Positions 4,561 through 24,127 are shown, counted from the first letter of the stretch. The stretch is DNA of 32,000 nucleotides from Geobacter metallireducens GS-15 (GCF_000012925.1 NC_007517.1:840001-872000); one strand, 5' to 3'. Made by a program: numbers and translations. The notes: generated from the letters alone by a model not told the origin.

Positions 4561-4585
4561 CAGCATGCCGGTGCTGGAAACAGCA

Positions 4586-4618: not shown

Positions 4619-4637
4619 GATAGCATCCGGAATGCCG

Positions 4638-5008
4638 CTATCTCGTGAAGTAGCCGTCCGAGAGCGTCTTCAGGAAGAGGACGATGTTGTCCACCTGGGG
4701 CCGAGGGAAAAATCCCATGGCGGTGCGGTTCTGGTCCACTTCCGGCGGCGGGAACATGGTGGCCATGGCTTCGCAGTTTCCGCCCATGCCGCCACCGCCT
4801 CCCATGCCGCCGCACATGCCGCTATCCATGGCCGCACGCCAGTGGTAGTCCACCGGTCGGGGTCCGTTCCGCTGCCGGGACATCCCATGGCGCCACCCAT
4901 ACCGCCACCGCCCATGCCGCCACTGCCGCACTTGAGCCTGGTGACGTCCTTGCCGGCCGCTATGGCATTATCCCAGAACTGGAGGGGAGTTGCCGCATTT
5001 TTCGTAGG
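4638..5008 (-). pseudogene. Met/Gly-rich locus with an apparent frame break; possible decayed small periplasmic or cytochrome-c-like protein, or a sequencing indel
   Basis: Two minus-strand frames both look coding. The upstream frame reads PLQFWDNAIAAGKDVTRLKCGSGGMGGGGMGGAMGCPGSGTDP and has no start codon after the TAA at 5009-5011. The downstream frame reads RPVDYHWRAAMDSGMCGGMGGGGGMGGNCEAMATMFPPPEVDQNRTAMGFFPRPQVDNIVLFLKTLSDGYFTR*. The same Gly-Met DNA repeat (4896-4921 and 4783-4811) is read in different frames, and the switch point is compatible with the C4 run at 4859-4862. Confidence 0.35.
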
Positions 5009-5042
5009 TTAATCAGGAAGGGATTAATCGGTGTTTGTCCCA

Positions 5043-5076
5043 TAAAAGCAAGAGGGCCTCCGGAGAAGCCCTCTTG
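5043..5076 (-). terminator. Probable rho-independent terminator of the ppsA-thioesterase transcript
   Basis: The stem AAGAGGGC (5050-5057) / GCCCTCTT (5068-5075) is followed on the minus strand by GCTTTTATG. It lies 24 nt downstream of the stop at 5100. Confidence 0.6.
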
Positions 5077-5099
5077 GGCTGCGATAATTGCCGCGTTGG

Positions 5100-5543
5100 T
5101 CACTTCCTCTCCCGGCGCCTGGCCCGGCGCTCCCCGGACGCTTCGCAGCGGCGCCGCTCCTCCTCGGTGCGGGGTTCCCACGGCGGGACCTCCGTCGGCT
5201 TCCCTCCCTTGTCCAGGGCCACCATGGTGAAGTATCCCCGGGCCGCCTCGTAACTCTGCCCCGTGAAGACATCCTCCGCCTCAACCATTACCGCCATGTC
5301 GATGGACGTTCGGCCGGTACAGACCACCCGGGCCTCCACCTTGACCACCTCCCCCACATGCACCGGCCGGATGAAGGCGATCTCCTCGGCCCCGGCGGTG
5401 ACCATGTCGCACCGGGCGTAGCGCCAGGCGGTGATGGCCGCCGCCTTGTCCATGAGGCTCATGAGCACCCCGCCGAAGATGTTTCCCGCAGAATTGGTGT
5501 CCTGGGGGAGGAGGGTCTCGATGAGGGTCCAGTCGCGGTTCAT
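5100..5543 (-). CDS. Acyl-CoA thioesterase, hotdog fold (YciA/Acot-like)
   Basis: Lower part of ORF 5100..6059. The start is MNRDWTLIETLLPQDTNSAGNIFGGVLMSLMDKAA at 5543. This ATG overlaps the ppsA stop as ATGA (5540-5543). Confidence 0.8.
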   Translation of the reverse strand: MNRDWTLIETLLPQDTNSAGNIFGGVLMSLMDKAAAITAWRYARCDMVTAGAEEIAFIRPVHVGEVVKVEARVVCTGRTSIDMAVMVEAEDVFTGQSYEAARGYFTMVALDKGGKPTEVPPWEPRTEEERRRCEASGERRARRRERK

Positions 5544-9170: not shown

Positions 9171-10127
9171 TCAGCCGGAAACGGCGTTCCCCCCCGAGGC
9201 CTTGGCGGCGTCGAGGGCCTCAAGGGCGCCCCTGAGCAGGGTGAGGCTGTCCGAGCCGACGGCGGCTTCGGCAACCCCCACCGATATGGTGAGGGGGGGA
9301 AGCATGCGGCCGTCATGGATGTCGATGACGGTGTTGGTCAGCCGCTGGCGAAGGCGTTCGGCGATCATCCGGGCCGTGGCGACTCCGGTTTCGGGGAGGA
9401 GGATGGCGAAGGTGTCCCCCCCGTAGCGGGCCACCACCTCGGTGGGACGGAGGTAGTTGCGCAGGGCCTTGGACACGGCATGGAGCGCCCGGTCTCCGCC
9501 GATGCGGCCGTGCTCTTCGTTGAAGGCGCGGAAGTGGTCGATGTCGATCATCATGAGGGAGAGGGGTTTACCGCTGGAGGCGGCGCGGCCTGCCTGGCGC
9601 TCCAGGACCCCTTCCAACCAGCGGCGGGTCTGGAAACCGGTAAGGGGGTCGACGATGCTCTGGTCGTGGAGGGCGTATTCGCGCGCCGTTCCGGCAAAGC
9701 TCTCGCGGCTCGGGTCGTGGCGCCGCCGCAGGAGGATGCCGAGGAGGTTGCAGGCGGCGGCGTGGGATGCCTGGGCCAGGGACCAGATGAGGTCCTCCTC
9801 CATGACGAGGACGCGGCAGGGCTCGGCAGCCACCAGCAGGCACGGGACGCCCGGTTCTCCCGCGGAGAACGTCTCGCCGATGATATCCCCCGGTTCCAGA
9901 AAGAGGGGATCATTGGTCTCCCGAACGTCATAGTGGAGGGCAAGGCGCCCCGACAGGAGCACCGAGAGACTGCGGTCGAGGGGGCCGTCAGGTTCGAACC
10001 GCTCGCCCCGGGGGAGTTCCTGGGCCGTGCAGTGGGCCAAGATTCCCTCGATGCACTCCAGGGGGACGAAGCGGAAAAGGGGAACCGTTTCCAGTTCGGC
10101 GGTGCTGAAGAGGGAGTCGTGGGTCAT
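9171..10127 (-). CDS. cNMP-binding-like domain plus GGDEF domain protein with a degenerate active-site motif (GGDTF)
   Basis: ORF 9171..10298. I place the start at MTHDSLFSTAELETVPLFRF (10127), which has GAGGAG upstream. The GGDEF domain runs DPLTGFQTRRW...MMIDIDHFRAFNEEHG...ARYGGDTFAILL...SVGVAE. Confidence 0.85.
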   Translation of the reverse strand: MTHDSLFSTAELETVPLFRFVPLECIEGILAHCTAQELPRGERFEPDGPLDRSLSVLLSGRLALHYDVRETNDPLFLEPGDIIGETFSAGEPGVPCLLVAAEPCRVLVMEEDLIWSLAQASHAAACNLLGILLRRRHDPSRESFAGTAREYALHDQSIVDPLTGFQTRRWLEGVLERQAGRAASSGKPLSLMMIDIDHFRAFNEEHGRIGGDRALHAVSKALRNYLRPTEVVARYGGDTFAILLPETGVATARMIAERLRQRLTNTVIDIHDGRMLPPLTISVGVAEAAVGSDSLTLLRGALEALDAAKASGGNAVSG

Positions 10128-10144
10128 GTCGCTCCTCACGGGGC

Positions 10145-10690
10145 TCAGTAGCCCCTCACTACCACGTCCAGGTGACCGTCGTTGGGGCAGAAGATGAGGC
10201 CGTGGATCGGCACGTCCCGGGGGATGAGAGGGTTCTGGCGGAGAACGGAAACCACCCGCCCGACGTTCTCCTCGGGGCAGGAGAAGGCCCCCATCCACTG
10301 GGCCAGGTCTGGCACCTGGGCTTCGATGATCGCAGGATCCACGCCCCGCGCAATCATCCGCTCTTTCAGGGCCTTGGCATCGACGCTGGCCATGCCGCAG
10401 TCCTGGTGCCCGATTACGAAGATTTCCTCCACGCCGAGCATGAAAATGGCCGCCACGAGGCTCCTCACCACGCCGCCGCTCATGGGGTCGACGATGGTGT
10501 TGCCGGCGTTCTTGATGACCTTAGCATCACCGCGCTTGATTCCCATGGCCGGTTCCAGAAAGTCCACGAGCCGGGTATCCATGCAGGTGAAGATGGCGAA
10601 CTGCTTCCTCGGGTTCTTGGGAAGGGGAGGGAATACCCCGGGGCGGACGAACTCCCTGTTGGCGTCGAGGATCGTGTCGAGAAGGGTCAT
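10145..10690 (-). CDS. Beta-class carbonic anhydrase
   Basis: ORF 10145..10759. I place the start at MTLLDTILDANREF (10690), which has GAGGTG upstream. The Zn-ligand motifs are CMDTR and GHQDCG. Confidence 0.88.
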   Translation of the reverse strand: MTLLDTILDANREFVRPGVFPPLPKNPRKQFAIFTCMDTRLVDFLEPAMGIKRGDAKVIKNAGNTIVDPMSGGVVRSLVAAIFMLGVEEIFVIGHQDCGMASVDAKALKERMIARGVDPAIIEAQVPDLAQWMGAFSCPEENVGRVVSVLRQNPLIPRDVPIHGLIFCPNDGHLDVVVRGY

Positions 10691-10728
10691 CGGGCACCTC
10701 GCGTTTTCGCATGGTTTGAGCGTGCATC

Positions 10729-10759
10729 TATATAACCCGGCCGTGGTGCGACCTGTCAA
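10729..10759 (-). promoter_or_regulatory. Candidate sigma70 promoter for the carbonic anhydrase operon
   Basis: The minus strand reads TTGACA (10759-10754), an 18-19 nt spacer, then TTATAT/TATATA (10735-10729). It sits about 40 nt upstream of the ATG at 10690. Confidence 0.35.
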
Positions 10760-10794
10760 CCGTTTTCATGACGAGCTTCGCGCATTTGCATCCG

Positions 10795-10822
10795 TTGACA
10801 AGCGGTAATGCCGGTCTATAGT
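10795..10822 (+). promoter_or_regulatory. Candidate sigma70 promoter for the OmpA-like gene
   Basis: TTGACA (10795-10800), a 16-nt spacer, then TATAGT (10817-10822). It sits about 50 nt upstream of AGGAGG (10861-10866) and the ATG at 10874. Confidence 0.5.
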
Positions 10823-10873
10823 TTTTCCGAGATTGACTTGAGGCTGCCTTACACAGAACAAGGAGGTTCCGCG

Positions 10874-12247
10874 ATGAAGAGACTATTGGCTGCAGGATGC
10901 GCACTTTTCGCCCTTGCCTTTGCCACGACGGCGATGGCGGAGGTGAAGCCGGGTTCATTTGCCATCACTCCCTACGTGGGAGGATACACCTTCGATGGCG
11001 AGCAGCACATCAAGACGGGCCCCACCTTCGGTATCCGTGGTGGGTACAATTTTACGAAAAACTGTGGGCTTGAAGGGGTCTTCGGCTATACCCCCACCGA
11101 GCAGACAAAGCGCGAGTCCGATGTTGATGCCATCACCTACCGTCTTGAGGGGCTCTATCACTTCATGCCGGAAAAGGATCTGGTGCCGTTTCTGGCCGTT
11201 GGCGGCGGCGGAATCACCATCGACAGTGAGGGCGCCGGGGTGAAGAGCCGTACCGACGGCATCGTCACGGCCGGTGGTGGCCTCAAGTATTTCATCAACG
11301 AGGCGCTTGCGGTGCGGACCGATGGCCGCTACATCCTCGACCTGAGCCGGACGCTCAGCAACTGGGAATACACCGTCGGCCTCAGTTTCCTGTTTGGCGG
11401 CGAGAAGAAGGCTGTCGCTCCCGTAGCCCCCGCGGCTGCTCCTGCTGAAGCGACCCCGGCACCCGAGGCCCCTCCCGCAGTCATGGCTGCCGAGCCGCGC
11501 CCTGGCCTCATGAAGTACTGCACCGATCTCAAGATCGAGTTCGACATCGACAAGGCCGACATCCGGCCCCAGTACAAGGACGAGGTGAAGCGTGTCGCCG
11601 ACTACATGAAGCAGTATCCGAACACCACGGCGGTCATCGAAGGGTATACCGACGACGTGGGGAGCGACGACTACAACATGAAGCTCTCCCAGCGGCGGGC
11701 CGAAGCCGTTGTGAATTCCCTCGTGGATGATTTCGGGATTGACCGCTCACGCCTCTCCGCCAAGGGGTATGGGAAGACCCAGCCCCTTACCTCCAACGCC
11801 ACCGAGGCGGGAAAACAGAAGAACCGCAGGATCCAGGCGGTCATCGACTGCACCCTGGAGGATCCCAAGGTTATCGCCAAGCTTCCGGACCGGCTCTGTG
11901 TGAGCCTCAATATCCAGTTCGACACCGACAAGTACACCATCAAGCCCCAGTACCATGACGAAATAGCCAAGGTGGGCGAGTTCATGAAGCAAAATCCCAC
12001 GACAACCGCAGTTATCGAAGGGCACACCGACCGCGTGGGGAGCTACGACTACAACATGAAGCTCTCCCTGCGCCGCGCCGAGAGTGTCGTGACCTATCTG
12101 GCCGACAAGTTCGGCATCGAGAGATCCCGCCTCTCCGCCAAGGGGTACGGCTATACCCGCCCCATCGGCTACAACTCCGACCCGAAGGGACGCGCCATGA
12201 ACCGGCGGATCAACGCCATCATCGACTGCGTGTTGCAGCAGAAGTAA
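10874..12247 (+). CDS. Outer-membrane protein: N-terminal beta-barrel, Pro/Ala linker and two tandem OmpA C-terminal (peptidoglycan-binding) domains
   Basis: ORF 10808..12247. I place the start at MKRLLAAGCALFALAFATTAMA (signal peptide) at 10874, after AGGAGG. The barrel-like segment has alternating aromatic residues, followed by the linker APVAPAAAPAEATPAPEAPPA. There are two OmpA_C units with TDxxGSxxYNxxLSxRRA. Confidence 0.9.
   Translation: MKRLLAAGCALFALAFATTAMAEVKPGSFAITPYVGGYTFDGEQHIKTGPTFGIRGGYNFTKNCGLEGVFGYTPTEQTKRESDVDAITYRLEGLYHFMPEKDLVPFLAVGGGGITIDSEGAGVKSRTDGIVTAGGGLKYFINEALAVRTDGRYILDLSRTLSNWEYTVGLSFLFGGEKKAVAPVAPAAAPAEATPAPEAPPAVMAAEPRPGLMKYCTDLKIEFDIDKADIRPQYKDEVKRVADYMKQYPNTTAVIEGYTDDVGSDDYNMKLSQRRAEAVVNSLVDDFGIDRSRLSAKGYGKTQPLTSNATEAGKQKNRRIQAVIDCTLEDPKVIAKLPDRLCVSLNIQFDTDKYTIKPQYHDEIAKVGEFMKQNPTTTAVIEGHTDRVGSYDYNMKLSLRRAESVVTYLADKFGIERSRLSAKGYGYTRPIGYNSDPKGRAMNRRINAIIDCVLQQK
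11519..12229 (+). repeat. Internal tandem duplication encoding two 111-aa OmpA_C domains (11519-11851 and 11897-12229)
   Basis: I aligned the two units by hand and found 70/111 identical residues. Both units start and end with Cys. Confidence 0.8.
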
Positions 12248-12271
12248 GAAATAAACTCTCTTCTTCAAGAG

Positions 12272-12305
12272 AAAAGGCCGTCTCCCTAGTGGGGGACGGC
12301 CTTTT
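12272..12305. terminator. Bidirectional rho-independent terminator between the convergent OmpA-like and regulator genes
   Basis: AAAAGGCCGTCTCCC tagt GGGGGACGGCCTTTT: a 15-bp stem with one mismatch, flanked by an A-run and a T-run. Confidence 0.7.
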
Positions 12306-12327
12306 CTCTTGGTGGGATACCCAAAGC

Positions 12328-13692
<1,365 letters not shown>

Positions 13693-13725
13693 GGGTGGAT
13701 CCTCTTGTATTGAAAGCAGTGATTC

Positions 13726-13845
13726 AATAACACGGAGAGACGGAGAGCACGGAGAAACCAAGAGAAAAAAACAGAGAGGCTACCAGAAATGATTCTGAAC
13801 GCCGGTTTTTGATTTGCTCCGTGTCCTCCGTTTCTCCGTGTTATT
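13726..13845. repeat. 120-bp inverted-repeat element (29-bp arms, 26/29 complementary) between the kinase and regulator cistrons; MITE/REP-like
   Basis: Arm 1 is AATAACACGGAGAGACGGAGAGCACGGAG (13726-13754). The reverse complement of arm 2 (13817-13845) is AATAACACGGAGAAACGGAGGACACGGAG. Each arm is built from ACGGAG(A) sub-repeats, and the 62-nt loop contains a T7 run on the minus strand. Confidence 0.6.
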
Positions 13846-13852
13846 TGGATTA

Positions 13853-16099
13853 TTACGCCGTTACCGGCAGCTCGATGATGAATTTCGTCCCGTGGGGAAG
13901 ATTGTCCCGCACGCGGATGAAGCCGTTGTGGTCGGCGATGATGGTGCTGACGATGGCAAGCCCCAGGCCGGTCCCGGACTTCTTGGTGGAGAAATACGGC
14001 TCGAAGAGGCGGGGCTTGTCCTCGGGGGCGATGCCGTGTCCCGTGTCGGCCACGGTGATCACCGCCATCTTCAGGACGGGATCGAAGCGGCTTTCGATTT
14101 CGATCTCCCCCTCTTCGGCCACGGCCGCCACGGCGTTGTCCAGGAGGTTGATGAAGACCCGCTTGATCTGATCCCGGTCGAGCTGCAGATGGGGGAGCCG
14201 GCGGTCTTCCCGGAAGCCGAACGAGATGGCCCTGTGCCCCTGGCTGAAGAGGGTGAGGGCCTCGCGGATGATCCCGTTCAGGTCGTTGGGGGCCGGGTTG
14301 GCGGCCGGCATCCGGGCAAAGCTGGAGAATTCGTTCACGAGGTTTTTCAGCTCATCCACCGATTTGACGATCATGGCGGTGCATTCGTCAAAGACGGTGT
14401 CTTCGTCGCCGAAGCGGGGGAGATAGCGCTTTCTCAGCCGCTGAGCGGAAAGCTGGATCGGCGTCAGGGGGTTCTTGATCTCGTGGGCGATGCGCCGGGC
14501 CACTTCCCGCCAGGCCGCCATCCGCTGGGCCTTGATGAGCTGGGTCAGGTCGTCGAAGACCACCACCGTTCCCAGGAACTCGCCGCTTTCGTCCCGCAGC
14601 ATGGTCAGGTTGAAGAGGAGTGTCGCCCTGGAGTCGCGGATCGGGACCGTCACCTGACGGCTGATGGTGTCCTGCTTCGCCATCACCATGTCGCGCAGGA
14701 TACCCTTGAGGGTGTCGATCTGCTCGTGCTTGAGAACCTCCCGGAAGTTCTTCCCCACCACGTCGCGGGCGGCGACCTGCAGGAGCTCCTCCGCCGATTT
14801 GTTGATGGTGGTGATCACACCATGACTGTCCACGGAGATGACGCCGGCGGCCACGTTGCGCAGCACGATCTCCATGTTGCGGCGCCGCTCGTCCAGCTCC
14901 TGGTTGCTCCGGACGAGCTCGATGTTGGTCTGGCGCAGGGCCTGCTGGTGGCTCCGCAGGTCCAGGGTCATCTTGTTGAAGGCGGCCACGAGCATCCCGA
15001 ACTCGTCGCTCGAGCGCTGCCCCAGTTGCACGTCCAGGTTTCCCTCGGCCACCTGGCGGGTCGCCTCGGCCAGCTCCTTGATGGGGGTCGTGAGGCTGTT
15101 GGCCAGGTAGATGCCGAACCAGACCGCCAGGAAGACGATCACCATGGTGACAAGGAAGAGGGTCAGGATGTACCCCGAGCGGATGGGGTTCTTGAGGATC
15201 TTGAGCTGGCGGAACTCCTCGTAGGAGCTGGTGATCTCCCGCATCTTCTCCACGAGGGAGTAGGGGACGACGTAGTTCACCACCACCACCCCCACCACCT
15301 CGTCGGCCCGGTAGGTGGAGTAGATGGGCATGATGCCGCGGATCAGGTCGGCTTTCCCCACGGTGTTGACGCGACTCAGTTCCTTGCCGTTGAGCCCCAT
15401 CTTGATGTCCTCGGAGGAGGGGTTCGTGAATTCCCCCTGGGGGACGCCGGGGTTCGACGACCGGACCAGCTCTTCGTTCTGGGAGGAGTAGACCTCCACG
15501 ATGCCGAGGTTGTACTCCTGCTGCTTCCGGCGGACCAGCTCCCGGAGCCGGGGAAGGTTTTCCTCGTTCAGGAGCCGCTCGTCCCGGATGATGGAACTGA
15601 TCTGCCGGCCGTAATAGAGGGCGTTGGCGGCCGAGTTTTTGTAGTAGGTCTGGGCCACCTCCAGGGACTCGGACAGGGAGCTCTCGACCTGGGTGTTGAA
15701 CCAGTTGCGGATACTCATGTTGACGTAGGAGGCCGACACCACGAAGAGGAGCATGGTCGGTACCAGCGACAGTCCCATGAAGGCGATGACGAGCTTGGTC
15801 TGGAGATTGGCGCCAATGGCCTTGCTTCGTCGCTCCATGAGGAGCTTGGCCACATTGCGGAAAACCAGGTAGATGAGGAGAATGATGAGGAGAATGATGA
15901 TGTTGATGATGCCGAAGATGAGGATGTTGCTCCCCATGGGGACTTCGGAGCTGATGCGGGAGAGGTGGATCTCGGCCCGGGTCAGCACGAGGATCAGCAG
16001 GACGGAGATGGCGATGATAATCGCTTCCCGCCGCCGCTTCTTCCGCTCCTGTTCCGGAGGGGAAATGATGGGTGGCTGCTGGTGATGGTTTTCAACCAT
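13853..16099 (-). CDS. Membrane sensor histidine kinase (NtrY-like: TM, extracytoplasmic domain, HAMP, PAS, HisKA, HATPase)
   Basis: ORF 13853..16150. The start is probably MVENHHQQ (16099), though the start at 16150 is also possible. Motifs are the H-box IAHEIKNPLTPI, DTGHGI and GTGLGLAIV. Hydrophobic segments lie near the N-terminus and before the HAMP domain. Confidence 0.88.
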   Translation of the reverse strand: MVENHHQQPPIISPPEQERKKRRREAIIIAISVLLILVLTRAEIHLSRISSEVPMGSNILIFGIINIIILLIILLIYLVFRNVAKLLMERRSKAIGANLQTKLVIAFMGLSLVPTMLLFVVSASYVNMSIRNWFNTQVESSLSESLEVAQTYYKNSAANALYYGRQISSIIRDERLLNEENLPRLRELVRRKQQEYNLGIVEVYSSQNEELVRSSNPGVPQGEFTNPSSEDIKMGLNGKELSRVNTVGKADLIRGIMPIYSTYRADEVVGVVVVNYVVPYSLVEKMREITSSYEEFRQLKILKNPIRSGYILTLFLVTMVIVFLAVWFGIYLANSLTTPIKELAEATRQVAEGNLDVQLGQRSSDEFGMLVAAFNKMTLDLRSHQQALRQTNIELVRSNQELDERRRNMEIVLRNVAAGVISVDSHGVITTINKSAEELLQVAARDVVGKNFREVLKHEQIDTLKGILRDMVMAKQDTISRQVTVPIRDSRATLLFNLTMLRDESGEFLGTVVVFDDLTQLIKAQRMAAWREVARRIAHEIKNPLTPIQLSAQRLRKRYLPRFGDEDTVFDECTAMIVKSVDELKNLVNEFSSFARMPAANPAPNDLNGIIREALTLFSQGHRAISFGFREDRRLPHLQLDRDQIKRVFINLLDNAVAAVAEEGEIEIESRFDPVLKMAVITVADTGHGIAPEDKPRLFEPYFSTKKSGTGLGLAIVSTIIADHNGFIRVRDNLPHGTKFIIELPVTA

Positions 16100-16204
16100 T
16101 GATGGGGAATCCTTGGTGTGGCAAAAATGCAACAGGGTCACTTTATACAAACGGGAGCGTTAATGCAAGGGAGCGATTTGCCGAAGGGCGGTCTCGAAAA
16201 TGAG

Positions 16205-16241
16205 AAAAGAGGCACCGGTGGTTATCTGCGGTGCCTCTTTT
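16205..16241 (-). terminator. Rho-independent terminator of the CheBR-kinase-REC operon
   Basis: The stem AAAAGAGGCACC (16205-16216) / GGTGCCTCTTTT (16230-16241) is followed on the minus strand by TTTTCTCATTTTCGAG. It lies 42 nt after the stop at 16284. Confidence 0.7.
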
Positions 16242-16283
16242 CTCTAGGGGGGCTTGGTAACTCCGGTTTCTGCATGGTGCCGG

Positions 16284-16712
16284 TTAGTTGATCACCGCAG
16301 GCCTGTGACGTTTCAGCATGACCTGGTCAATGAATTTGCCGATAGCCAGGAACAAAAGCTTGGTGTCTACCGGTTTCAGGATATAGTCCGTGATGCCGAT
16401 ATCCTGCAACTGGTCGAAGTAGCACTTTTCGCTATAACCGGACATGACGATGATTTTGGCGTCCGGTTTCAGGCCTCTGATCTCCCCGGCCATCCGGATG
16501 CCGTCCATGTCGGGCATGTTGATATCGGTTATGACGATGTCGAATTCATTGGCCCGGCAGAGTTCCAACCCTGATTCGCCATTATCGGCAAGGATGATGG
16601 CAACCCCCGGGAATTTGTTGGAGATCATGAGCGGAATCAATTCTCTCGCATACCGGTCGTCTTCCACAAAGAGAATGTTGATGGATTTGGCTGGATTGCG
16701 GGCTGGTTCCAT
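16284..16712 (-). CDS. Stand-alone response-regulator receiver (CheY-like, no output domain)
   Basis: ORF 16284..16712. Motifs are ILFVEDD, the phospho-acceptor context DIVITDINMPDMDG, and the conserved Lys in ILKP. The ATG lies 1 nt after the stop of the upstream kinase. Confidence 0.88.
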   Translation of the reverse strand: MEPARNPAKSINILFVEDDRYARELIPLMISNKFPGVAIILADNGESGLELCRANEFDIVITDINMPDMDGIRMAGEIRGLKPDAKIIVMSGYSEKCYFDQLQDIGITDYILKPVDTKLLFLAIGKFIDQVMLKRHRPAVIN

Positions 16713-16713
16713 G

Positions 16714-18018
16714 TCAGACCTCGATCCTGAATTCGGCGCATTCTTTGATGTTGCGAACGGTCAAGTGGCCTCCCATGTTTCGTTCAATGATGTTTTTTGA
16801 CATGAAAAGTCCGATGCCGCTTCCCTTGCCGAGTTTCTTGGTGGTGAAATAGGGATCGAAAACCTTGTCGATAATGTTCTCATCGATCCCGCCGCCGTTG
16901 TCGGTGATCGTGACAACAGCCCTGCCGTTCTCCGGCCGGGAACTCACTTTTATCCATTTATCGGCAACGAGCGCATCCCGTGCGTTTAACAGGAGATTGA
17001 GCAGCGCCTGGCTGAATTCATTGGGGAATCCCGCCACCTGCGAATCCTGGACAAAATCGGACTGGATTGAAATGCCTTGCTGCGTGAAGAGTTCGCCAAC
17101 GAGTTCCAGTGTTTTTTTGATGACCTGGTTTATCCTGAACGGGATCTTTTCCCGGTCCGGTTCGGAAAAGGCCCGGAAATCATCGATGGTTTGGGACAGG
17201 TGTTTGAGGATTTCCATCGCCTTCGCAACGTTAACGCTGACCAACTGCTTGTCAAGGCAGTCGGATTCGCTGAACAACCCTAGTTGCTGAATCAATAGCC
17301 CCATGACATTCAACGATTGCCGCCATTGGTGGGCGATATTGGCGAGCATCTCCCCCATGGCGGCCATCCTCCCCTGGTGAACCAGCAGCAGTTCCTTGTT
17401 CCGGAGCTCTTCCACCGCCTGCAGCCGCCCGGTCATTTCCTCCTTTTCCCGGTCAATGGATCGGGCCAGTTCCACGGTCCGTTCCAAAACGCGCTGCTCC
17501 AACTCCTCCCTGGCCCGGAGGAGGTTATCCTCCGCCTGTTTCCTGGGGGTGATATCGATCACCGCCATAAGGCACTCGTCACCAGGGACGACAGTGGTCC
17601 CCTCTATCTGCACGAAGAGCGGCTGTTGCAGCCCCTTCGACATGAGCAGCTCGAACGTGTGCGTGTTATTGCCGGAAAACACCTTGTCCAGCAATTCCTT
17701 GAAGCGCGCGGAATTGATTTTGTCGAGAAAACGGCCAAAATTCTGCCTGATAAGCCGGGAGCGTTCCGTATTCAGCAGGGTCGCCCCGGCCAGGTTGGCG
17801 GAGAGGATCGTTCCGTTGCGGGAGAGGGTGAAATAGCCCACCGGGGCAAAATCATAGAGGAGCGAATAACGGTCCCGGGAACTTCGCAACTCATCCTGTG
17901 ACCGGTGCAGCTCCTCATTCTGCATTTCCAGTTCGATCTGGTGGACCTGCAACTCATGGAGGAGTGTTAAAGCGTCCCCCTCCGTCCTGGGGACAACGCT
18001 TTGAAGGGGAAGCTCCAT
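16714..18018 (-). CDS. Cytoplasmic coiled-coil, PAS, HisKA, HATPase sensor histidine kinase
   Basis: ORF 16714..18117. I prefer the start MELPLQSV at 18018, which has GGAGAG upstream; the start at 18117 would overlap the previous gene by 41 nt. Motifs are the PAS segment YSLLYDFAPVGYFTL, the H-box NIAHQWRQSLN, DNGGGI and GSGIGLFMS. Confidence 0.85.
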   Translation of the reverse strand: MELPLQSVVPRTEGDALTLLHELQVHQIELEMQNEELHRSQDELRSSRDRYSLLYDFAPVGYFTLSRNGTILSANLAGATLLNTERSRLIRQNFGRFLDKINSARFKELLDKVFSGNNTHTFELLMSKGLQQPLFVQIEGTTVVPGDECLMAVIDITPRKQAEDNLLRAREELEQRVLERTVELARSIDREKEEMTGRLQAVEELRNKELLLVHQGRMAAMGEMLANIAHQWRQSLNVMGLLIQQLGLFSESDCLDKQLVSVNVAKAMEILKHLSQTIDDFRAFSEPDREKIPFRINQVIKKTLELVGELFTQQGISIQSDFVQDSQVAGFPNEFSQALLNLLLNARDALVADKWIKVSSRPENGRAVVTITDNGGGIDENIIDKVFDPYFTTKKLGKGSGIGLFMSKNIIERNMGGHLTVRNIKECAEFRIEV

Positions 18019-18076
18019 GAGGCGTCTCTCCGCGCCGCGGCGGAGCGTTACGTCCTGCGGCGCGCCAGGTGGGGCA

Positions 18077-20740
18077 TCATTCTTCTTTCCGCCCCTGCAG
18101 CAGTTTTTTGACCTCATCCCTGAGTTCCTCTTCCAGCTTCTTGAATGGCGTGATGTCGGTCATGGTGATTACCACCCCGTCGATCACATCACTCACCGTG
18201 CGGTACGGCATGATCCGAACCGAGAACCAACGTCCGTCGTTGGTGGTCACCTGCTTTTCCGAATAGACCAGCGTCCGGAGCACTGCCTCGGCATCGTCGG
18301 TCAGTTCAGGGTAGCTGAGATCGTTGACGATGTCGGTGAGGGGGCGCCCCACATCGCTTGGGATCAGCTTGAACAGCTTGCTGGAGGCGTTGGCGAAGCG
18401 GCGGATGTTCAGCTTGCTGTCCAGGAAGATGGTGGCCACCTCGGTGCTGTTGAGGAAGTTCCGCATGTCGTCGTTCAGGTGCGACAGTTCATCCACCTTG
18501 GCCTGCTGCTCGGAGTTCACCGTCTGCAGTTCCTCGTTCATGGACTGCATCTCCTCCTTGGAGGTGGTCAGCTCTTCGTTGGTGGACTGCAACTCCTCGT
18601 TTATAGATTGTAACTCCTCATTCGAGGCTTTCAACTCTTCCTGTGAGGTTTGCATCTCCTCCCGCGTGGTCTGCAATTCCTCAAGGGTAATCCGGAGCTT
18701 CTCCTGGGTCTGCTGCAGTTCCAGTTCCAGTTCGCCAATCCGGGCGGTTACGGCATCCGATGACTTGACGCCGCGTTTCTTGACCGGAGATTCCTGACAG
18801 GGCTCCAGATCCTTGAAAATGATCATGGCCATCCCCTGCAGTTCCGGCTCTTCCATCTTCTGGACAATAAGGTCGAGGGTTTGGGGATGCCCGTTGCCGC
18901 TGATCCGGATGTTCCGCGTGATAACCGGCGCATTCTGCCGCATTGCCTTGTGGAATGCGGCGAGCAGTTCGGGGCGTAACCCCTCCCGGGCCATGGCGAA
19001 AACGTTAATGTTCGCTTTCCCCACCGGCGGCTCGAGATATTTACCGATCCGGGCGCTGATGTAGACGATGTCCCCTTCCTCGTTCACGAGAACAGCGGGG
19101 GGGGAGTGCTTTTGCAGCAGGATTCGGTCGGCCAGGACCTGGAAGTTGATCTCGGGTTTCACGGGCGAGAGCTCCTTGTGGGAGGCTGTCGCAAGGGGGA
19201 ACGTTGAGGGGAACGACGCCAGACTCGCCCGGCTGACGCCGTTGTCCCGTCTGAAAAGCCTCAATTTGGCATTGACGGCCGTGAAAAGCTCGGCACTGGC
19301 GCCGAGGGTCTCGGCACTGCCGAGAAACAGCACCCCTCCCGGGTTGAGAACGTAGTGGAAGAGGGGGAGGAGTTTCTTTTGCATTTCAACGTCCAGATAG
19401 ATCAGCAGATTGCGGCAGATGAGAATGTCGAGCTTGGTGAAGGGGGGATCGGTGATAACGTTCTGGGTGGCGAACGTGACCATTTCACGGATTTCCTTCT
19501 TGATCCGGTACCCGTCTTCATCCTTGACGAAATAACGGTTCAGCCGCTCGGCGGAAACATCACTGGCAATGTTGGGGAGAAAGAGCCCCAGCCGGGCCTT
19601 GTCTATGGCGTCCCGGTCGAGATCGGTGGCAAAGACTTGCAGGCTGAAATGGGCCTTGGGTTTGACCTGCTCCAGGACTTCCCTGAAGATGATGGCCAGG
19701 GAATAGGCCTCTTCGCCGGTGGAGCACCCGGCCGACCATGCCCGCAGTACCCCCCCCTCCGGGTGGCTGGCCAGCAAATCCGGAATTACCTCGTTTTTTA
19801 GGTTTTCCCACGCGGCAGGGTCCCTGAAAAAACTGGTCACGCCAATGAGGAACTCCTTGAAGAGCAGTTCCAGTTCCTGGTGATTCGCCTGGATGTAGCG
19901 CACGTAGCCGGCGATGGAATCTATCTGGTGAATCCCCATTCGCCGCTCTATCCGGCGGTAGAGGGTACTCTTCTTGTAAAGGGAGAAATCGTTCCCCGTC
20001 TCGCTCCGGAGCAGGATGACGATCTTGTCGAGGGCACTCAGCTCCTTGTCCTCCAGTTTCGTCTTCTGCTGCGAAGGTGCGGGGGTGTGCTGGAGAAAGT
20101 CCATGATTTTCCCGGGGATATTCTCGGCCCGGGCAACTATGTCAGCAAGACCGAAACTGATGGCGCTGTTGGGCATGCCGCTGAACTTGGCCGAGTCGGG
20201 GTCCTGCACCAGGGTGAGCCCCCCCTTCTCCTTGATGGCCCTCAGCCCTAAGGTGCCGTCCGATCCCATGCCGGAAAGGATTACGCCGATGCTCCGCTCC
20301 TTGCAGTCTTCGGCAAGGGAGCGGAAGAAGTGGTCGATGGGGAGGCGCTGGCCCCGGGGTTCGGAGGCCTCGAACAGGTGCAGCACCCCGTGGAGGATCG
20401 ACATGTCGCGATTGGGGGGGATGACGTAGACGGAGTCAGGCCTGACTCGACTCCGGTCCTTGACCGCCGTTACCTTCATGCTGGTGACCCGCTGCAGCAG
20501 TTCGGGCAGGAGCGCGATATGGTCCGGGTCGAGATGCTGGATCACCACAAAGGCCAGGCCGCTGTTCTGGGGGACGTGCTCAAGGAACTGTGTCAGGGCC
20601 TCCAGCCCCCCGGCGGACGCCCCGATGGCGACGATGGGGAAATGCGTTTCATCACTTTTCCGCTCAGGTTCGGGAGCTGAAGGGGCGGGGGTGGGGGGCT
20701 TTTTCCCCGCAACGGAGGTCTTGGTGGACTTTTTTGTCAT
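18077..20740 (-). CDS. CheB methylesterase / CheR methyltransferase fusion protein with coiled coil and C-terminal PAS
   Basis: ORF 18077..20740, with GGAGAC upstream. The CheB domain shows VAIGASAGGLEAL, VVIQHLDP and LSGMGSDGT. The CheR domain shows FFRDPAAW and RAWSAGCSTGEEAYSLAI. The coiled coil has EELQ heptads, and the PAS segment is ATIFLDSKLNIRRF. Confidence 0.9.
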   Translation of the reverse strand: MTKKSTKTSVAGKKPPTPAPSAPEPERKSDETHFPIVAIGASAGGLEALTQFLEHVPQNSGLAFVVIQHLDPDHIALLPELLQRVTSMKVTAVKDRSRVRPDSVYVIPPNRDMSILHGVLHLFEASEPRGQRLPIDHFFRSLAEDCKERSIGVILSGMGSDGTLGLRAIKEKGGLTLVQDPDSAKFSGMPNSAISFGLADIVARAENIPGKIMDFLQHTPAPSQQKTKLEDKELSALDKIVILLRSETGNDFSLYKKSTLYRRIERRMGIHQIDSIAGYVRYIQANHQELELLFKEFLIGVTSFFRDPAAWENLKNEVIPDLLASHPEGGVLRAWSAGCSTGEEAYSLAIIFREVLEQVKPKAHFSLQVFATDLDRDAIDKARLGLFLPNIASDVSAERLNRYFVKDEDGYRIKKEIREMVTFATQNVITDPPFTKLDILICRNLLIYLDVEMQKKLLPLFHYVLNPGGVLFLGSAETLGASAELFTAVNAKLRLFRRDNGVSRASLASFPSTFPLATASHKELSPVKPEINFQVLADRILLQKHSPPAVLVNEEGDIVYISARIGKYLEPPVGKANINVFAMAREGLRPELLAAFHKAMRQNAPVITRNIRISGNGHPQTLDLIVQKMEEPELQGMAMIIFKDLEPCQESPVKKRGVKSSDAVTARIGELELELQQTQEKLRITLEELQTTREEMQTSQEELKASNEELQSINEELQSTNEELTTSKEEMQSMNEELQTVNSEQQAKVDELSHLNDDMRNFLNSTEVATIFLDSKLNIRRFANASSKLFKLIPSDVGRPLTDIVNDLSYPELTDDAEAVLRTLVYSEKQVTTNDGRWFSVRIMPYRTVSDVIDGVVITMTDITPFKKLEEELRDEVKKLLQGRKEE
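18524..18691 (-). repeat. Eight tandem 21-nt coding units (heptads xxNEELQ) inside the CheBR gene
   Basis: Minus-strand translation gives ITLEELQ TTREEMQ TSQEELK ASNEELQ SINEELQ STNEELT TSKEEMQ SMNEELQ. The DNA units all have the form CTGCA(A/G)(C/T)TCCTC.... Confidence 0.8.
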
Positions 20741-20774
20741 CTATGGTCTCCGTAACGTTTCGTTAGAGTTAAAA

Positions 20775-20803
20775 ATAATATCCGCAGCAGTGGTGATTGG
20801 CAA
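20775..20803 (-). promoter_or_regulatory. Candidate sigma70 promoter of the CheBR operon
   Basis: The minus strand reads TTGCCA (20803-20798), a 17-nt spacer, then TATTAT (20780-20775). It sits about 35 nt upstream of the ATG at 20740. Confidence 0.4.
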
Positions 20804-20977
20804 GATAACAGGTGTGGATAGCGATAGCAAATCCCTGTCGGTTAGCCTCGTCGTTCAAGTCCTCAGAAAGGGGGAGACCCCATGAAATCAAAAAAATGAA
20901 TAGTGGCAGAGCAGTTCCTCACTTTTACGCTGAAAAGCGAATAGAAAAATGTTATTAAACAGCATGTTTTGTCGCTT

Positions 20978-20997
20978 TGGCCATGGCATTGCCATGG
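20978..20997 (+). promoter_or_regulatory. Sigma54-type -24/-12 candidate (TGGCCATGGCATTGC) embedded in a perfect 17-bp palindrome
   Basis: GG lies at 20979-20980 and GC at 20991-20992, which is the consensus spacing of TGGCAC-N5-TTGC. CCATGGCA-T-TGCCATGG (20981-20997) is a perfect palindrome. The site is 70 nt upstream of the ATG at 21062. Confidence 0.35.
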
Positions 20998-21061
20998 ATA
21001 CGCTGTAATCGTCATGACCGACAGAGTGGCTATACCGCAATCAGCCTGAGGAGGGTCTTTG

Positions 21062-21907
21062 ATGAGGCATTCGATTGGTCCAGCGTTGTCACTGGTTGCC
21101 GCATTGATGTTTTTTGCGCTGCTGACGGGGCCGTGCCGAGTGGAAGCCGCCGGGGCCGAAACCATCCGGGTGAATGGTTCCGGCAGTGCCCTGTACGTAA
21201 TGAGGCCGCTGATCAAGGCGTATCTCAAGGCCCACCCCGGAGTCCGCATCGAAATGGAAAAGCCCCTGGGGAGTTCCGGGGCCGTAAAGGCCCTTCTTGC
21301 AGGGGGGCTGGATATGGTTGTCAGCAGCAAGGTGCTCAAGTCGGAAGAGGCGGCGCAGGGAGGCATTTCCCGGGAATACGGCAAAATGCCTCTGGTCGTC
21401 GTGACAGGGAAGCAGGTATCCAAAAGGGATATCACCACGAAGGAACTGGAGGATATCTATTCCGGAAAGGTGAGAACCTGGCCCAATGGCGAGCCGATCC
21501 GGCTGGTGCTGCGGCCCGATGCCGATATCGACACCACGATCCTTGCGGGGCTCTCCCCTGCCATGGGCAAGGCGATGAAGGCGGCCCACTCCCATCCCGG
21601 CATGATTGTCGCGGTGACGGATCCCGAATCCGATGAAGCGGTCGCAAAGACTCCCGGCTCCCTGGGTACCGCCGCCCTGTCGTCGATCCTGGTGGAGAAG
21701 GCCCCTCTGAATGTTCTCGCCCTGAACGGAATCAAGCCCTCCGTGAAGACCCTGGCCAACGGGACGTATCCCCTTGCCAAGGATATCCGCTTCATCACCA
21801 CGAAGCATACTCCGCCCGCCACCCTCAAATTCATCGATTTCATCTACTCGCCTCAGGGCCGGGCCATCGCCGGTAAGGCAGGGGTTCTCGTTCCCGTGGG
21901 GCGGTAA
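21062..21907 (+). CDS. Periplasmic substrate-binding protein, PstS/PBP_like_2 fold, no cognate permease
   Basis: ORF 21059..21907. The ATG at 21062 comes after GAGGAGGG. The signal peptide is MRHSIGPALSLVAALMFFALLTGPCRVEA. The mature protein has IRVNGSGSALY, GSSGAVKALLAGGLDMVVSS and the periodicity of a type-II binding protein. Confidence 0.85.
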   Translation: MRHSIGPALSLVAALMFFALLTGPCRVEAAGAETIRVNGSGSALYVMRPLIKAYLKAHPGVRIEMEKPLGSSGAVKALLAGGLDMVVSSKVLKSEEAAQGGISREYGKMPLVVVTGKQVSKRDITTKELEDIYSGKVRTWPNGEPIRLVLRPDADIDTTILAGLSPAMGKAMKAAHSHPGMIVAVTDPESDEAVAKTPGSLGTAALSSILVEKAPLNVLALNGIKPSVKTLANGTYPLAKDIRFITTKHTPPATLKFIDFIYSPQGRAIAGKAGVLVPVGR

Positions 21908-21916
21908 AAAGGGCCT

Positions 21917-24127
21917 GTGACAACACTCTACAGATCCATAGCCCGTCTCACCACTCTCTTTGCGGGGGCCATAACCATTACCGTGGCGGTTCTGGTCCCT
22001 GCCGGCTATTTTCTGGTTTCCTACCAGTATCTGCTTGGCAGCCTCGATACCCAGGCCGAAGTCAACTCTCGGGCCGTCACCCGCCTGGTAACGGCAAATC
22101 CCGAGATGTGGCGGTATGAAGAGGTCCGGCTCATGGAGCTGTTGGAGCGCCGCAGCCGGCGGGATATCCCCGAGGTGCGGCGGGTTCTGGATCTCCAGGG
22201 GAAAACCATCGTGGCGAGTGCGGACCATTTGCGTCCGCCGGTGGTGTCGCGGCGCTATGCCATCTATGACGCCGGTCACGCGGTAGCTCAGCTGGAAATT
22301 TCCCGTTCCCTCGGCCCCCTGCTGCTCGAAACGGCCCTGGTGGCCGCCTGCGCGCTGCTGGTGGGAGGGCTCGGTTTCGTCATGCTCCGCACAATCCCCT
22401 TGCGGGCCGTCAACCAGGCTCACCAGTCCCTGGCGGAGAGCGAAGCGAAATATCGTTCCCTCTACGATTCGATGAAGGAGGGGATGGCGCTGCACCGGAT
22501 CATCTCCGACATGGAGGGCAATTCCGTCGGCTTCGAGGTGGTCGACGTAAACCCTTCGTTCGCGTCGATCCTCGGCATGGAGAAATCGGCGATTATCGGC
22601 ATGGGGGGCGAAGAGTTTTTCAGCGGTGCGCTTATGGCCCGTTTTGCCGAGATAGTTCGCGGAGCAGAGAGCGGCGAGGCGCTGATGTTCGAATTGCCCC
22701 TGCCGGAGAAAAACCTCTTTTTTGATGTGTCGGTGTTTTATCCGGATAGCGGTCTGTTTGCGACCTTGTTCGAGGATACCACGGAGCGGAAGAAGTCGGA
22801 CGAACAGATCCAGAGACTTGCCTACTACGACACCCTGACGGCGTTACCGAATCGAACCCTCTTCCTCGACCGGTTGGAACAGGCCCTTGCCGGGGCCATC
22901 CGCGATAACGGCAAGTTTGCCCTTTTCTTCATCGATCTCGACGGCTTCAAGGTCATCAATGACAACCTGGGACACGCCCAGGGGGACCTGCTCCTCACCA
23001 TGGTTTCGCAACGGCTGAGGGAAGGCATCCGCCGCAAGGACACCCTTGCCCGGCTGGGGGGCGATGAGTTCATGGTGCTGATTTCCTACGCTGGCGAAGA
23101 ACGCAATGCCGCACACCTCGCCCAGCACCTTCTGGAGAGGATTTCGCCTCCCTACGAGATCGGCAGCCGTGTCGTTTACACTTCCGCAAGCATCGGTATT
23201 TCCATCTTTCCCGATGACGGGCGCGACGCAGAGACGCTCCTGCGATGCGCCGACATGGCCATGTACGCAGCCAAGGAAGCGGGGCGCAACGGCTACCATT
23301 TCCATTCGCCGGAAATGAACCGCAAGGCCCATGAACGGATGGAACTGGAGATGAGTCTCCGGCAGGCCCTGGAGCGGGATGAGTTTTTCCTGGAGTTCCA
23401 GCCCATCATCAATGTTGGCGGAGACTGCCTGGTGGGGGCCGAAGCCCTTGTCCGCTGGCAGCATCCTGCACAGGGGAGGGTCATGCCGGGAACCTTTATC
23501 CCCCTTGCGGAAAGCTCGGGCCTGATCATTCCCCTGGGCGAGTGGGTGTTGCGGAAAGCCTGCGAGAAGATGAAGGAGTGGCGCGATGCCGGACTCCCGC
23601 CCGTCAAGCTGTCGGTCAACATCTCGGGGCGGCAGTTTGAGCAGCGCAACTTCACTGCGTTGGTCGATGAAGTTCTGAAGGAAACCGGCGTCGATGCCCG
23701 CGCGCTTCAGTTCGAGCTTACGGAAACCAGCCTCATGAAAGATGCCGGAGCCACGGTGAGCGCCCTCTACAAACTCAAGGAACTGGATCTGAGGATCGTG
23801 GTCGACGACTTCGGTACGGGGTATTCTTCCCTGGCGTATCTCAAGAACTTTCCCATCGATCACATCAAGATCGACCGCTCGTTCGTCATGGATATCTGCG
23901 ACGATCCCGACGACCGGTCCATCGTGGAAGCCATTGTCGCCATGGCAAACAAACTCAACCTCGATGTTGTGGCGGAAGGTGTTGAAACCCGCGAACAGCG
24001 GGACTTGCTTCTGGATCTCGGCTGCCACGAGATGCAGGGGTTCCTCTTCCACCGCCCGCTGCCCGAAGAAAAGTTCGTTGAACTGCTGCGGGACGTGAGG
24101 CTTTGCACTCTTCCTGCGGCGCTTTGA
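21917..24127 (+). CDS. Membrane-bound PAS-GGDEF-EAL protein (putative bifunctional c-di-GMP cyclase/phosphodiesterase)
   Basis: ORF 21917..24127 has a GTG start 9 nt after the previous stop. Two TM segments flank a loop of about 115 aa. Motifs are PAS (SLYDSMKEGMALHR), GGDEF (LARLGGDEFMVL), and EAL (GAEALVRWQHP, QFELTE, DDFGTGYSSLAYL). Confidence 0.9.
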   Translation: MTTLYRSIARLTTLFAGAITITVAVLVPAGYFLVSYQYLLGSLDTQAEVNSRAVTRLVTANPEMWRYEEVRLMELLERRSRRDIPEVRRVLDLQGKTIVASADHLRPPVVSRRYAIYDAGHAVAQLEISRSLGPLLLETALVAACALLVGGLGFVMLRTIPLRAVNQAHQSLAESEAKYRSLYDSMKEGMALHRIISDMEGNSVGFEVVDVNPSFASILGMEKSAIIGMGGEEFFSGALMARFAEIVRGAESGEALMFELPLPEKNLFFDVSVFYPDSGLFATLFEDTTERKKSDEQIQRLAYYDTLTALPNRTLFLDRLEQALAGAIRDNGKFALFFIDLDGFKVINDNLGHAQGDLLLTMVSQRLREGIRRKDTLARLGGDEFMVLISYAGEERNAAHLAQHLLERISPPYEIGSRVVYTSASIGISIFPDDGRDAETLLRCADMAMYAAKEAGRNGYHFHSPEMNRKAHERMELEMSLRQALERDEFFLEFQPIINVGGDCLVGAEALVRWQHPAQGRVMPGTFIPLAESSGLIIPLGEWVLRKACEKMKEWRDAGLPPVKLSVNISGRQFEQRNFTALVDEVLKETGVDARALQFELTETSLMKDAGATVSALYKLKELDLRIVVDDFGTGYSSLAYLKNFPIDHIKIDRSFVMDICDDPDDRSIVEAIVAMANKLNLDVVAEGVETREQRDLLLDLGCHEMQGFLFHRPLPEEKFVELLRDVRLCTLPAAL

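Follow-up and report, generated by a model that had tools for sequence, protein, structure and literature searches.

The operon

The window analysed here, the whole 32-kb stretch of DNA from Geobacter metallireducens, carries a three-gene operon on its minus strand which encodes, in order, an 887-amino-acid (aa) protein that joins CheB-type methylesterase and CheR-type methyltransferase domains to PAS-type sensor domains (hereafter the fusion), a 467-aa histidine kinase, and a 142-aa receiver. Genes for such fusions are in most cases followed directly by a gene whose product starts with a conserved helical region, referred to below as the tag. This gene pair, fusion and tagged kinase, is found across bacteria and probably forms a methylation-based circuit that is unrelated to chemotaxis.

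The fusion gene, with the architecture CheB-CheR-PAS-helix-PAS_10, occupies 18077..20740, the tag-PAS-histidine kinase gene 16714..18117, and the receiver-only response regulator gene 16284..16712, all on the minus strand, as determined from open reading frames (ORFs) and Pfam matches, together with NCBIfam for the kinase. The kinase ATG was placed at 18117, where it has a GAGGAA ribosome-binding site upstream and the gene overlaps the end of the fusion gene by 41 nucleotides (nt), because a close homologue at a Geomobilimonas locus (L001) aligns upstream of the next in-frame ATG; the kinase is translationally coupled to the fusion through this overlap. The receiver starts at an ATG (16712) 1 nt past the stop codon of the kinase gene (16714-16716). 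Ahead of the fusion gene there is a putative sigma-70 promoter, TTGCCA-17 nt-TATTAT (20775..20803, minus strand), assigned by consensus match alone with a score of 10/12 in a consensus scan, and past the receiver gene a terminator-like hairpin (AAAGAGGCACCG, loop, CGGTGCCTCTTT) with a T-rich tail, TCTCATTTT (16205..16241, minus strand), which was found by direct reading of the sequence and which the terminator scanner did not report.

Domains and catalytic residues of the fusion protein

The fusion is 100% identical to a G. metallireducens protein annotated as 'MCP methyltransferase/methylesterase, CheR/CheB with PAS/PAC sensor', where MCP stands for methyl-accepting chemotaxis protein. Its CheB methylesterase domain (aa 36-218; 20087..20635, minus strand) matches the full Pfam CheB_methylest model at residues 37-212 (1.5e-58) and has the corresponding fold in the AlphaFold2 (AF2) model. 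Ser42 (in GASAGG), His69 (in IQHLDP) and Asp161 (in GMGSDG) align with S164, H190 and D286 of Escherichia coli CheB, and among the 150 relatives described in the next section they are kept in 142, 147 and 138, respectively. Neither Pfam nor AF2 shows a REC domain on the CheB part: only a disordered stretch, residues 1-35, precedes the methylesterase domain, which begins at residue 36-37.

The CheR methyltransferase (aa 231-498; 19247..20050, minus strand) consists of an all-alpha N-terminal domain with a basic alpha2 helix, followed by a domain that binds S-adenosylmethionine (SAM), with Pfam matches to CheR_N at 237-286 (2.4e-16) and to CheR at 301-491 (1.4e-54). It was aligned with E. coli CheR, whose corresponding positions are matched by R306, E343/E344, D373, R443/N444 and Y448 of the fusion, and also with the CheR structures 1af7 and 5ftw of the PDB. 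The SAM-binding and catalytic residues of CheR, like the CheB triad, are each kept in 138-150 of the 150 relatives at about 45% identity, and both domains look active as judged from their sequences. The basic residues of the alpha2 helix, which in chemotaxis CheRs contacts and recognises the acidic methylation helix of MCPs according to CheR mutagenesis work, are also kept (K256, R262, R263, R266 and R267, in 136-149 of the 150). The alignment with E. coli CheR contains a four-residue gap in one loop, and it is this loop that marks pentapeptide-dependent CheRs.

Between CheR and the C-terminal sensor, the AF2 model contains two disordered linkers (502-530 and 647-668), which enclose an alpha/beta domain (aa 533-644; 18809..19144, minus strand) that was recognised as PAS-like by inspection of its fold, a helix and then five strands with intervening helices, modelled at a predicted local distance difference test score (pLDDT) of ~60-90. 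Pfam gives no match to this domain. The second linker leads into a single uninterrupted helix of 100 residues (aa 665-764; 18449..18748, minus strand; pLDDT ~80-89), which connects the enzyme half of the protein to PAS_10 and to which Pfam assigns coiled-coil-type matches at ~658-770. The PAS_10 sensor domain (aa 767-864; 18149..18442, minus strand; Pfam 759-864, 4.9e-33) is followed by a C-terminal helix (864-886) and shows a weak match to the PAS domain of ThkA (PDB 3a0r). The model of the whole protein has a pLDDT of 75.9 and a predicted template modelling score (pTM) of 0.35, and the relative positions of the domains are undefined because of this low pTM.

The fusion family and its fixed core

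Relatives of the fusion were collected by an exhaustive HMMER search of cluster representatives at 50% identity, which returned 16,370 representatives at E<=1e-30. The best 150 of these, ranging in length from 662 to 1793 aa, all span query residues ~30-875, so that CheB-CheR-X-helix-PAS_10 constitutes a fixed core; the CheB domain, the CheR domain, the heptad array of the long helix and PAS_10 occur together in all 150, with or without an output domain or a tag partner. The core is found alone (~830-950 aa), with one additional PAS domain (~950-1100 aa), or with added PAS/GAF domains and outputs. HATPase_c (with HisKA, HisKA_2, HisKA_3 or HWE) is present in 21 of 38 long members, REC in five and SpoIIE in two; these covalently extended members have the same types of output as the separate partners described below, and no tag.

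The fusion protein itself is not new: its family is very large and is catalogued under the KEGG-style name 'two-component system, chemotaxis family, CheB/CheR fusion protein' (cheBR), of which the protein in the window is an ordinary member. A review of Geobacter merely counts the fusion among the che genes (PMC8396549). No published mechanism for cheBR fusions was found in a literature search of incomplete coverage, in agreement with the preliminary description of this locus, which had stated that such fusions are catalogued and that no mechanism has been worked out. One 1010-aa member comes from an archaeal metagenome-assembled genome (MAG) assigned to Methanolobus (L078, 9827-12859), with no tag gene within 9 kb downstream, and could reflect either horizontal acquisition or a binning artefact.

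A conserved array of MCP-type heptads in the long helix

The central part of the long helix (aa 687-745; 18506..18682, minus strand) is a heptad array, delimited by pattern matches and conservation, which reads LEELQTT, REEMQTS, QEELKAS, NEELQSI, NEELQST, NEELTTS, KEEMQSM and NEELQTV, followed by NSEQ. The classical pattern of MCP methylation sites is Glu-Glu-x-x-Ala-Ser/Thr, and the fusion contains five exact matches to EExx[AST][ST], all of them in the helix and in heptad register, with none elsewhere in the protein. The second Glu of each EE pair is a candidate methyl-accepting site on the strength of this pattern. The preliminary description had regarded the methylation substrate as obscure; given that the fusion's own coiled coil consists of heptads of the MCP site type, it is not wholly so.

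The specificity of the pattern was evaluated with the relaxed form [EQ][EQ]xx[AST][AST]. In E. coli Tar this form gives exactly four matches, whose second residues correspond to the established sites Q295, E302, Q309 and E491; three of these matches lie in heptad register. At least three matches in heptad register (3-6 per protein) are present in 82 of 85 fusion ORFs, and the same clustered pattern occurs in only one of the 3371 other ORFs of at least 100 aa in the collected loci, that one being a truncated fusion. When Tar site 3 (ASMEQLTAT) is set beside a repeat of the fusion (STNEELQST), the two agree by residue class along the stretch.

In the alignment of the 150 representatives (~45% identity), the array is conserved to a degree that equals or exceeds that of the catalytic residues, and no other stretch of the protein is conserved as strongly. 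Position a of the heptad is Asn in ~141-147 members, positions b and c are Glu in ~145-148 and ~144-148, d is Leu in ~130-137, e is Gln in ~143 and f is Ser in ~136-140, while g is a variable small residue; the exposed positions b, c, e and f are thus ~90-99% conserved. An extra heptad, EKLRITL (aa 680-686; 18683-18703), is found in the N-terminal part of the helix; it is present in the closest relatives of the window fusion and absent from 148 of the 150, and as a whole-heptad insertion it keeps the register. Searches of PDB and Pfam with the helix revealed no solved structure and no family with such a helix, and no MCP signalling hairpin was found in the fusion (no MCPsignal match in Pfam, no phmmer match with Tar or Tap).

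The tagged kinase and the receiver

The kinase starts with two helices, resolved in an AF2 model of its residues 1-200 (pLDDT 86), which precede its PAS domain. The first (aa 21-35; 18013..18057, minus strand) carries the motif LRxxAE, and the second, the tag helix (aa 46-89; 17851..17982, minus strand; pLDDT 94-97), runs straight into the PAS domain and has the core LLHELQVHQIELEMQNEEL at aa 52-70 (17908-17964). The PAS domain (aa 94-188; 17554..17838, minus strand; matched at ~83-190 by Pfam PAS_9/PAS/PAS_4) is followed by a kinase core (16750..17358, minus strand) made up of a dimerisation and histidine phosphotransfer domain with His263 (aa 254-321) and of HATPase_c (aa 366-456; 2.3e-17). 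HisKA itself lies below the Pfam cut-off (19.2 versus 26.9 bits), but NCBIfam identifies an AtoS-like kinase core at 237-459 (3.3e-37), and His263, in the H-box IAHQWRQ, aligns with the conserved His of kinase partners at other loci. The receiver is matched by Response_reg at 13-123 of its 142 residues (5.6e-24), has no output domain, and carries D63 at the phospho-acceptor position, aligned with D57 of CheY.

The reading of the locus in the preliminary description stands up in these respects: ORFs, promoter-like site (20803-20775) and hairpin (16241-16205) agree with the three-protein minus-strand operon that it proposed, Pfam supports the CheB, CheR, heptad-helix and PAS composition of the 887-aa protein, alignment with the E. 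coli enzymes bears out the intact CheB and CheR residues, and the absence of REC from the CheB part, the kinase architecture and the REC-only receiver with its ATG 1 nt past the kinase stop were likewise recovered.

Linkage between the fusion and the tag

The genomic context of the family was evaluated at 80 loci from one-genome-per-species contigs, which come from Verrucomicrobiota, Bacteroidota, Desulfobacterota/Desulfuromonadales, Myxococcota, Beta- and Gammaproteobacteria, Chloroflexota, Firmicutes, Planctomycetota, Acidobacteriota, Nitrospirota and the Methanolobus MAG. The downstream partners in the neighbourhoods of the first four relatives all begin with ...HELxVHQIELEMQNEEL..., and in two Geobacter paralogue groups the gene downstream of the fusion encodes a sigma-54 activator, in one group with a PAS domain and in the other without. 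With a hidden Markov model (HMM) of the motif, a tag ORF was detected immediately downstream on the same strand at 64 of the 77 loci with downstream room, beginning a median of 120 nt past the fusion stop and frequently with a 4-nt overlap of start and stop codons. The 13 exceptions include one locus with the tag gene immediately upstream, one in which the tag is internal to the fusion (L054, at aa 1053), and at least one with a diverged tag below the threshold (L037). Fourteen additional tag ORFs were found near fusion loci; at four loci (L040, L041, L069 and L075) two or three tag genes stand in a row or on either side of the fusion, as if one fusion served several outputs. At a Verrucomicrobiae locus (L006) with two fusions, one of 1575 aa (2017-6744, minus strand) and one of 915 aa (9935-12682, plus strand), only the shorter has a tag partner directly downstream.

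The outputs of the 64 partners vary widely. HATPase_c is present in 42, with the dimerisation domains HisKA (25), HisKA_3 (9), HisKA_2 (3) or HWE (2), REC in 20, GGDEF in seven, EAL in four, Sigma54_activat in three and GerE in two; the partner at one locus (L003) lacks a PAS domain altogether. Several histidine-kinase subfamilies, hybrid kinases and LuxR-type regulators are among these outputs. What is deeply conserved is therefore the fusion together with a downstream protein starting with an LRxxAE...HELQVHQIELEMQNEEL helix, with a variable output. The preliminary description had the fusion wired to a two-component kinase, of which the genetic linkage stands, with the correction that the partner is defined by its tag and that its output is not always a kinase. 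It had further raised the question of whether the fusion-kinase-REC arrangement is conserved: the triad is conserved in close relatives only (L001 and, similarly, L008), a REC-containing gene follows only 11 of the 64 partners, and the triad was rejected as the defining unit.

The linkage was also evaluated in the reverse direction, by a metagenome scan seeded with an alignment of the tag alone. At 37 of the 75 resulting loci with at least 500 nt of upstream sequence, the tag gene directly follows the C-terminal end of a fusion encoded on its own strand, and at about 10 others a fusion, or part of one, lies within 6 kb; the tag occupies the N-terminus throughout, always with LRxxAE ahead of it. 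The linkage between fusion and tag is strong in both directions and is not exclusive. A word-indexed protein search with kinase residues 1-200 returned 5,590 proteins, and tagged proteins appear to outnumber fusions. Many of the tag proteins are only 200-260 aa long, comprising the tag and one PAS domain with no output, and others combine the tag and PAS with GGDEF (~345 aa) or with an AraC-type helix-turn-helix; the small tag-PAS proteins could be adaptors or competitors for the fusion.

Across the 64 partners with their different outputs, the tag contains seventeen consecutive near-invariant residues, H54-L70, which cover all faces of the helix, with L56 and E62 invariant. The LRxxAE residues (L25, R26, A29 and E30) are kept in 54-61 of the 64 and recur in the tag-seeded metagenome loci. 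The LRxxAE motif always lies ~20-25 residues N-terminal of the tag helix; according to AF2 it forms a separate short helix, which may pack against the tag helix to make a hairpin. Neither Pfam nor the PDB has a match to the tag, and its motif strings are absent from the literature searched. The tag helix and the fusion helix share an unusual heptad pattern with polar Asn/Gln at a and Leu at d, which, by coiled-coil design principles, would favour specific in-register pairing.

These properties raise the question of whether the tag, rather than the array, could be the methyl acceptor. Its glutamates E55, E62 and E69 are spaced by seven and each precede a Leu, it is near-invariant with E62 kept in 64 of 64 partners, it is the feature that is genetically linked to the fusion in both directions, and the excess of tag genes over fusions, with nearby second copies and orphans, resembles the ratio of many MCPs to each CheR. 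The NEEL helix of the fusion would then serve for dimerisation or docking, or as a pseudo-substrate, and so bring the enzymes into position. The tag does not, however, fit the MCP consensus, since it has bulky residues (V/H, M/Q, R/R) where MCP sites have Ala, Ser or Thr, and some partners have A, T, D or M in place of E69. Extended family members, moreover, keep the enzymes and the array without any tag, so the tag is not a universal substrate. Methylation of the tag is, on this evidence, unlikely.

Absence of chemotaxis genes and genomic surroundings

Chemotaxis components were sought in the window and in the homologous loci (1.48 Mb of loci) by phmmer searches starting from the E. coli proteins Tar, Tap, CheA and CheW, a procedure that a very divergent CheW could escape. 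No MCP, CheA or CheW was detected among the ORFs of the 32-kb window, and among 85 homologous loci an MCP was found at three, CheW at one and CheA at one, so that the orphan status which the preliminary description assigned to the module holds beyond this genome. The one locus with a bona fide CheA belongs to a Desulfobulbus MAG (L054; 9842-15397, also 448-2670 and 3882-5876), where the fusion is 1851 aa long, contains its tag internally and has a weak MCP-like match nearby; this locus could link the orphan module to che pathways.

These counts bear on the possibility that the fusion is a PAS-regulated accessory adaptation enzyme for chemoreceptors encoded elsewhere in the genome, with the adjoining kinase merely co-expressed. 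The CheB and CheR domains are bona fide, MCPs do occur at three of the 85 loci, and an Azospirillum brasilense mutant of a CheR/CheB fusion reportedly has cyst and chemotaxis phenotypes, which would favour such a role. G. metallireducens itself has many MCPs and several che clusters (PMC2577667). Against this, 82 of the 85 loci lack an MCP and 84 lack CheA, and the family is present in lineages that generally have no MCPs. Specifically, at least nine fusion loci come from Bacteroidota, and Galperin's census found the first sequenced Bacteroidetes to be rich in kinases and to have no MCPs (PMC1183210); the evidence on this point is indirect. Nor would a role as accessory enzyme account for the invariant heptad array, the tag linkage or the overlap of start and stop codons. 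The genomic context speaks against a CheR domain that acts mainly on MCPs, and we consider this alternative improbable.

Elsewhere in the window there are an NtrY/NtrX-like pair, OmpA, a PEP-CTERM protein, Mla and ABC transport genes, PEP synthase and a HerA-like ATPase. Two further signalling units adjoin the module, one on each side: on the plus strand, divergent from it, a gene for a PBP-like periplasmic binding protein and then a PAS-GGDEF-EAL gene (21059-24127), and downstream on the minus strand the pair formed by the NtrY-like kinase and the sigma-54 NtrX-like regulator (12328-16150). A search with the tag HMM found the tag in neither. The G+C content of the three-gene module (16000-21000) is 0.52-0.58, compared with ~0.60-0.67 for most of its surroundings, and the intact fusion-kinase-receiver set of Geomobilimonas lies in a wholly different genomic context; the lower G+C content and the conservation of the set in an unrelated neighbourhood suggest that the module moves as a unit.

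Proposed mechanism

The mechanism proposed here is that the operon encodes a signalling circuit separate from chemotaxis and based on the reversible methylation of glutamates, in which the helix of the fusion is the methyl acceptor and the tag couples it to the kinase; we put the chances of this being correct at about even. The fusion would combine a sensor, a methyl-accepting element and the adaptation enzymes in one soluble protein. Its two PAS-type domains flank the 100-residue helix, which presumably dimerises into a coiled coil; the PAS domains would sense, and the helix would both transmit the signal and store the methylation. The CheR domain would methylate the exposed EE pairs, seven residues apart in an S-T-N-E-E-L-Q-S-T context, and the REC-less CheB domain of the same protein would remove the methyl groups again, with the disordered linkers that tether both enzymes covalently to the helix replacing the pentapeptide tether of E. 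coli. The co-translated kinase would dock by means of its N-terminal tag, composed of the LRxxAE helix and the HELQVHQIELEMQNEEL helix, and the activity of the kinase, and hence the phosphorylation of the 142-aa receiver, would be set by what the fusion senses and by how far it is methylated. In terms of the chemotaxis pathway, the tag would take the coupling role of CheW and CheA-P5, and the fusion would be MCP, CheR and CheB rolled into one.

What the sequences show directly is the order of the genes, their domains, the intact catalytic residues, the conserved heptad array, the tag with its linkage in both directions, and the lack of che genes; the helix as methyl acceptor, the docking of the tag on the fusion, and the direction of signal flow are inferred. 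The fusion is taken to be a self-contained methyl-accepting sensor because the array is the only potential substrate that accompanies both enzymes in every family member, and the tag is taken to be a coupling device because it is present only where the output is a separate polypeptide, while extended members have the same outputs and no tag.

Several observations weigh against the mechanism. The AF2 model of the fusion (pTM 0.35) shows no interpretable inter-domain arrangement. About 28 of the 75 tag-seeded loci have no fusion in the available DNA, so the tag may work independently of the fusion. Tag variants show no co-variation with the array of the fusion, a comparison that carries no information, as the array does not vary from one tag to another. 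A BLASTP comparison of the helix with Tar was not significant, and the likeness of the helix to MCPs is consequently confined to the motif level; homology of the helix to Tar was dropped as a claim, and the motif-level claim was kept. The resemblance to MCP sites could be convergent, or it could be a by-product of coiled-coil composition. The extreme conservation on all faces of the helix could likewise reflect a role that is purely structural or lies in protein binding. Finally, alternation between Glu and Gln, the signature of CheB-deamidated sites in many MCPs, is nearly absent from the array in the 150-member alignment, where the Glu is simply invariant; its absence neither supports nor excludes methylation.

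The last two of these observations are also compatible with an alternative in which methylation is not the signal at all, and the CheB and CheR domains serve instead as scaffolding modules or as sensors of SAM, S-adenosylhomocysteine or another metabolite, with the helix acting as a signalling coiled coil between the PAS domains. The conservation of all helix faces is compatible with a binding surface, and methyltransferase-fold domains that serve in binding and not in catalysis exist in other systems. It is hard to explain without catalysis, however, why the hydrolase triad and the transferase residues are 92-100% conserved across relatives with ~45% identity, and non-catalytic domains therefore seem to us highly improbable.

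If the proposed methylation circuit is extended from this operon to the family as a whole, CheBR-PAS_10 would constitute a widespread second methylation-adapting sensory system, independent of MCP, CheA and CheW, in which a self-methylating helix is plugged into thousands of outputs by the LRxxAE...HELQVHQIELEMQNEEL tag. Such a system would range from Proteobacteria to Bacteroidota, Verrucomicrobiota, Chloroflexota and at least one archaeal MAG, and its outputs would comprise kinases, diguanylate cyclases, sigma-54 activators and small tag-PAS proteins. This generalization is tentative, and we regard it as somewhat more doubtful than probable.

Glutamate methylation by CheR and CheB is the textbook molecular memory of chemotaxis, and it has essentially no known targets other than MCPs. 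The same enzymes are found here in ~10^4 sequence clusters from many phyla, detached from MCP, CheA and CheW and tied to kinases, enzymes of cyclic diguanylate (c-di-GMP) metabolism and transcription activators. If the helix is methylated, adaptation and memory by methylation would be general to bacterial signalling and not a matter of taxis alone, and the tag would be a new and predictable wiring code that marks the proteins under such control. The interest lies more in this general, testable rule than in the locus of the window itself. No description of the methylation-consensus array, of the tag or of their linkage was found in the literature covered, which was incomplete, so that an earlier description is possible.

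Comparison with known systems

The fusion of the window shares its architecture fully with the cheBR database family, whose core is common to all 150 best representatives. Compared with the CheR-CheB-MCP system of E. coli and Salmonella, the module has the same catalytic domains and residues, an acidic helix with EExx(A/S)(S/T) sites seven residues apart, and a flexible tether. It differs in that its CheB has no REC domain, the enzymes are fused to each other and to their putative substrate helix, and there is no MCP hairpin, CheA or CheW, with the output proposed to pass by way of an N-terminal tag to a classical histidine kinase or to other proteins.

Other systems share individual features with the module. 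Adaptation by methylation for outputs other than motility, such as c-di-GMP synthesis, transcription and development, is found in the Wsp system of Pseudomonas and in Che3 of Myxococcus or Rhodospirillum centenum, but these alternative-function chemosensory pathways retain an MCP, CheW and a CheA-type kinase (PMC3147164, PMC3868531), none of which is present in the module. In cfcABCDE of Pseudomonas putida, the hybrid kinase CfcA is encoded beside a CheB/CheR pair that has no role in chemotaxis (PMC4951495); compared by description, this system resembles the module in that its CheB and CheR genes accompany a histidine kinase other than CheA and not MCPs, and differs in that its CheB and CheR are separate proteins. 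Soluble chemoreceptors such as FrzCD are, like the fusion, soluble helical proteins linked to a PAS or other sensor and methyl-accepting, as the fusion is proposed to be, whereas they have an MCP signalling domain, use CheA and CheW, and carry no enzymes of their own.

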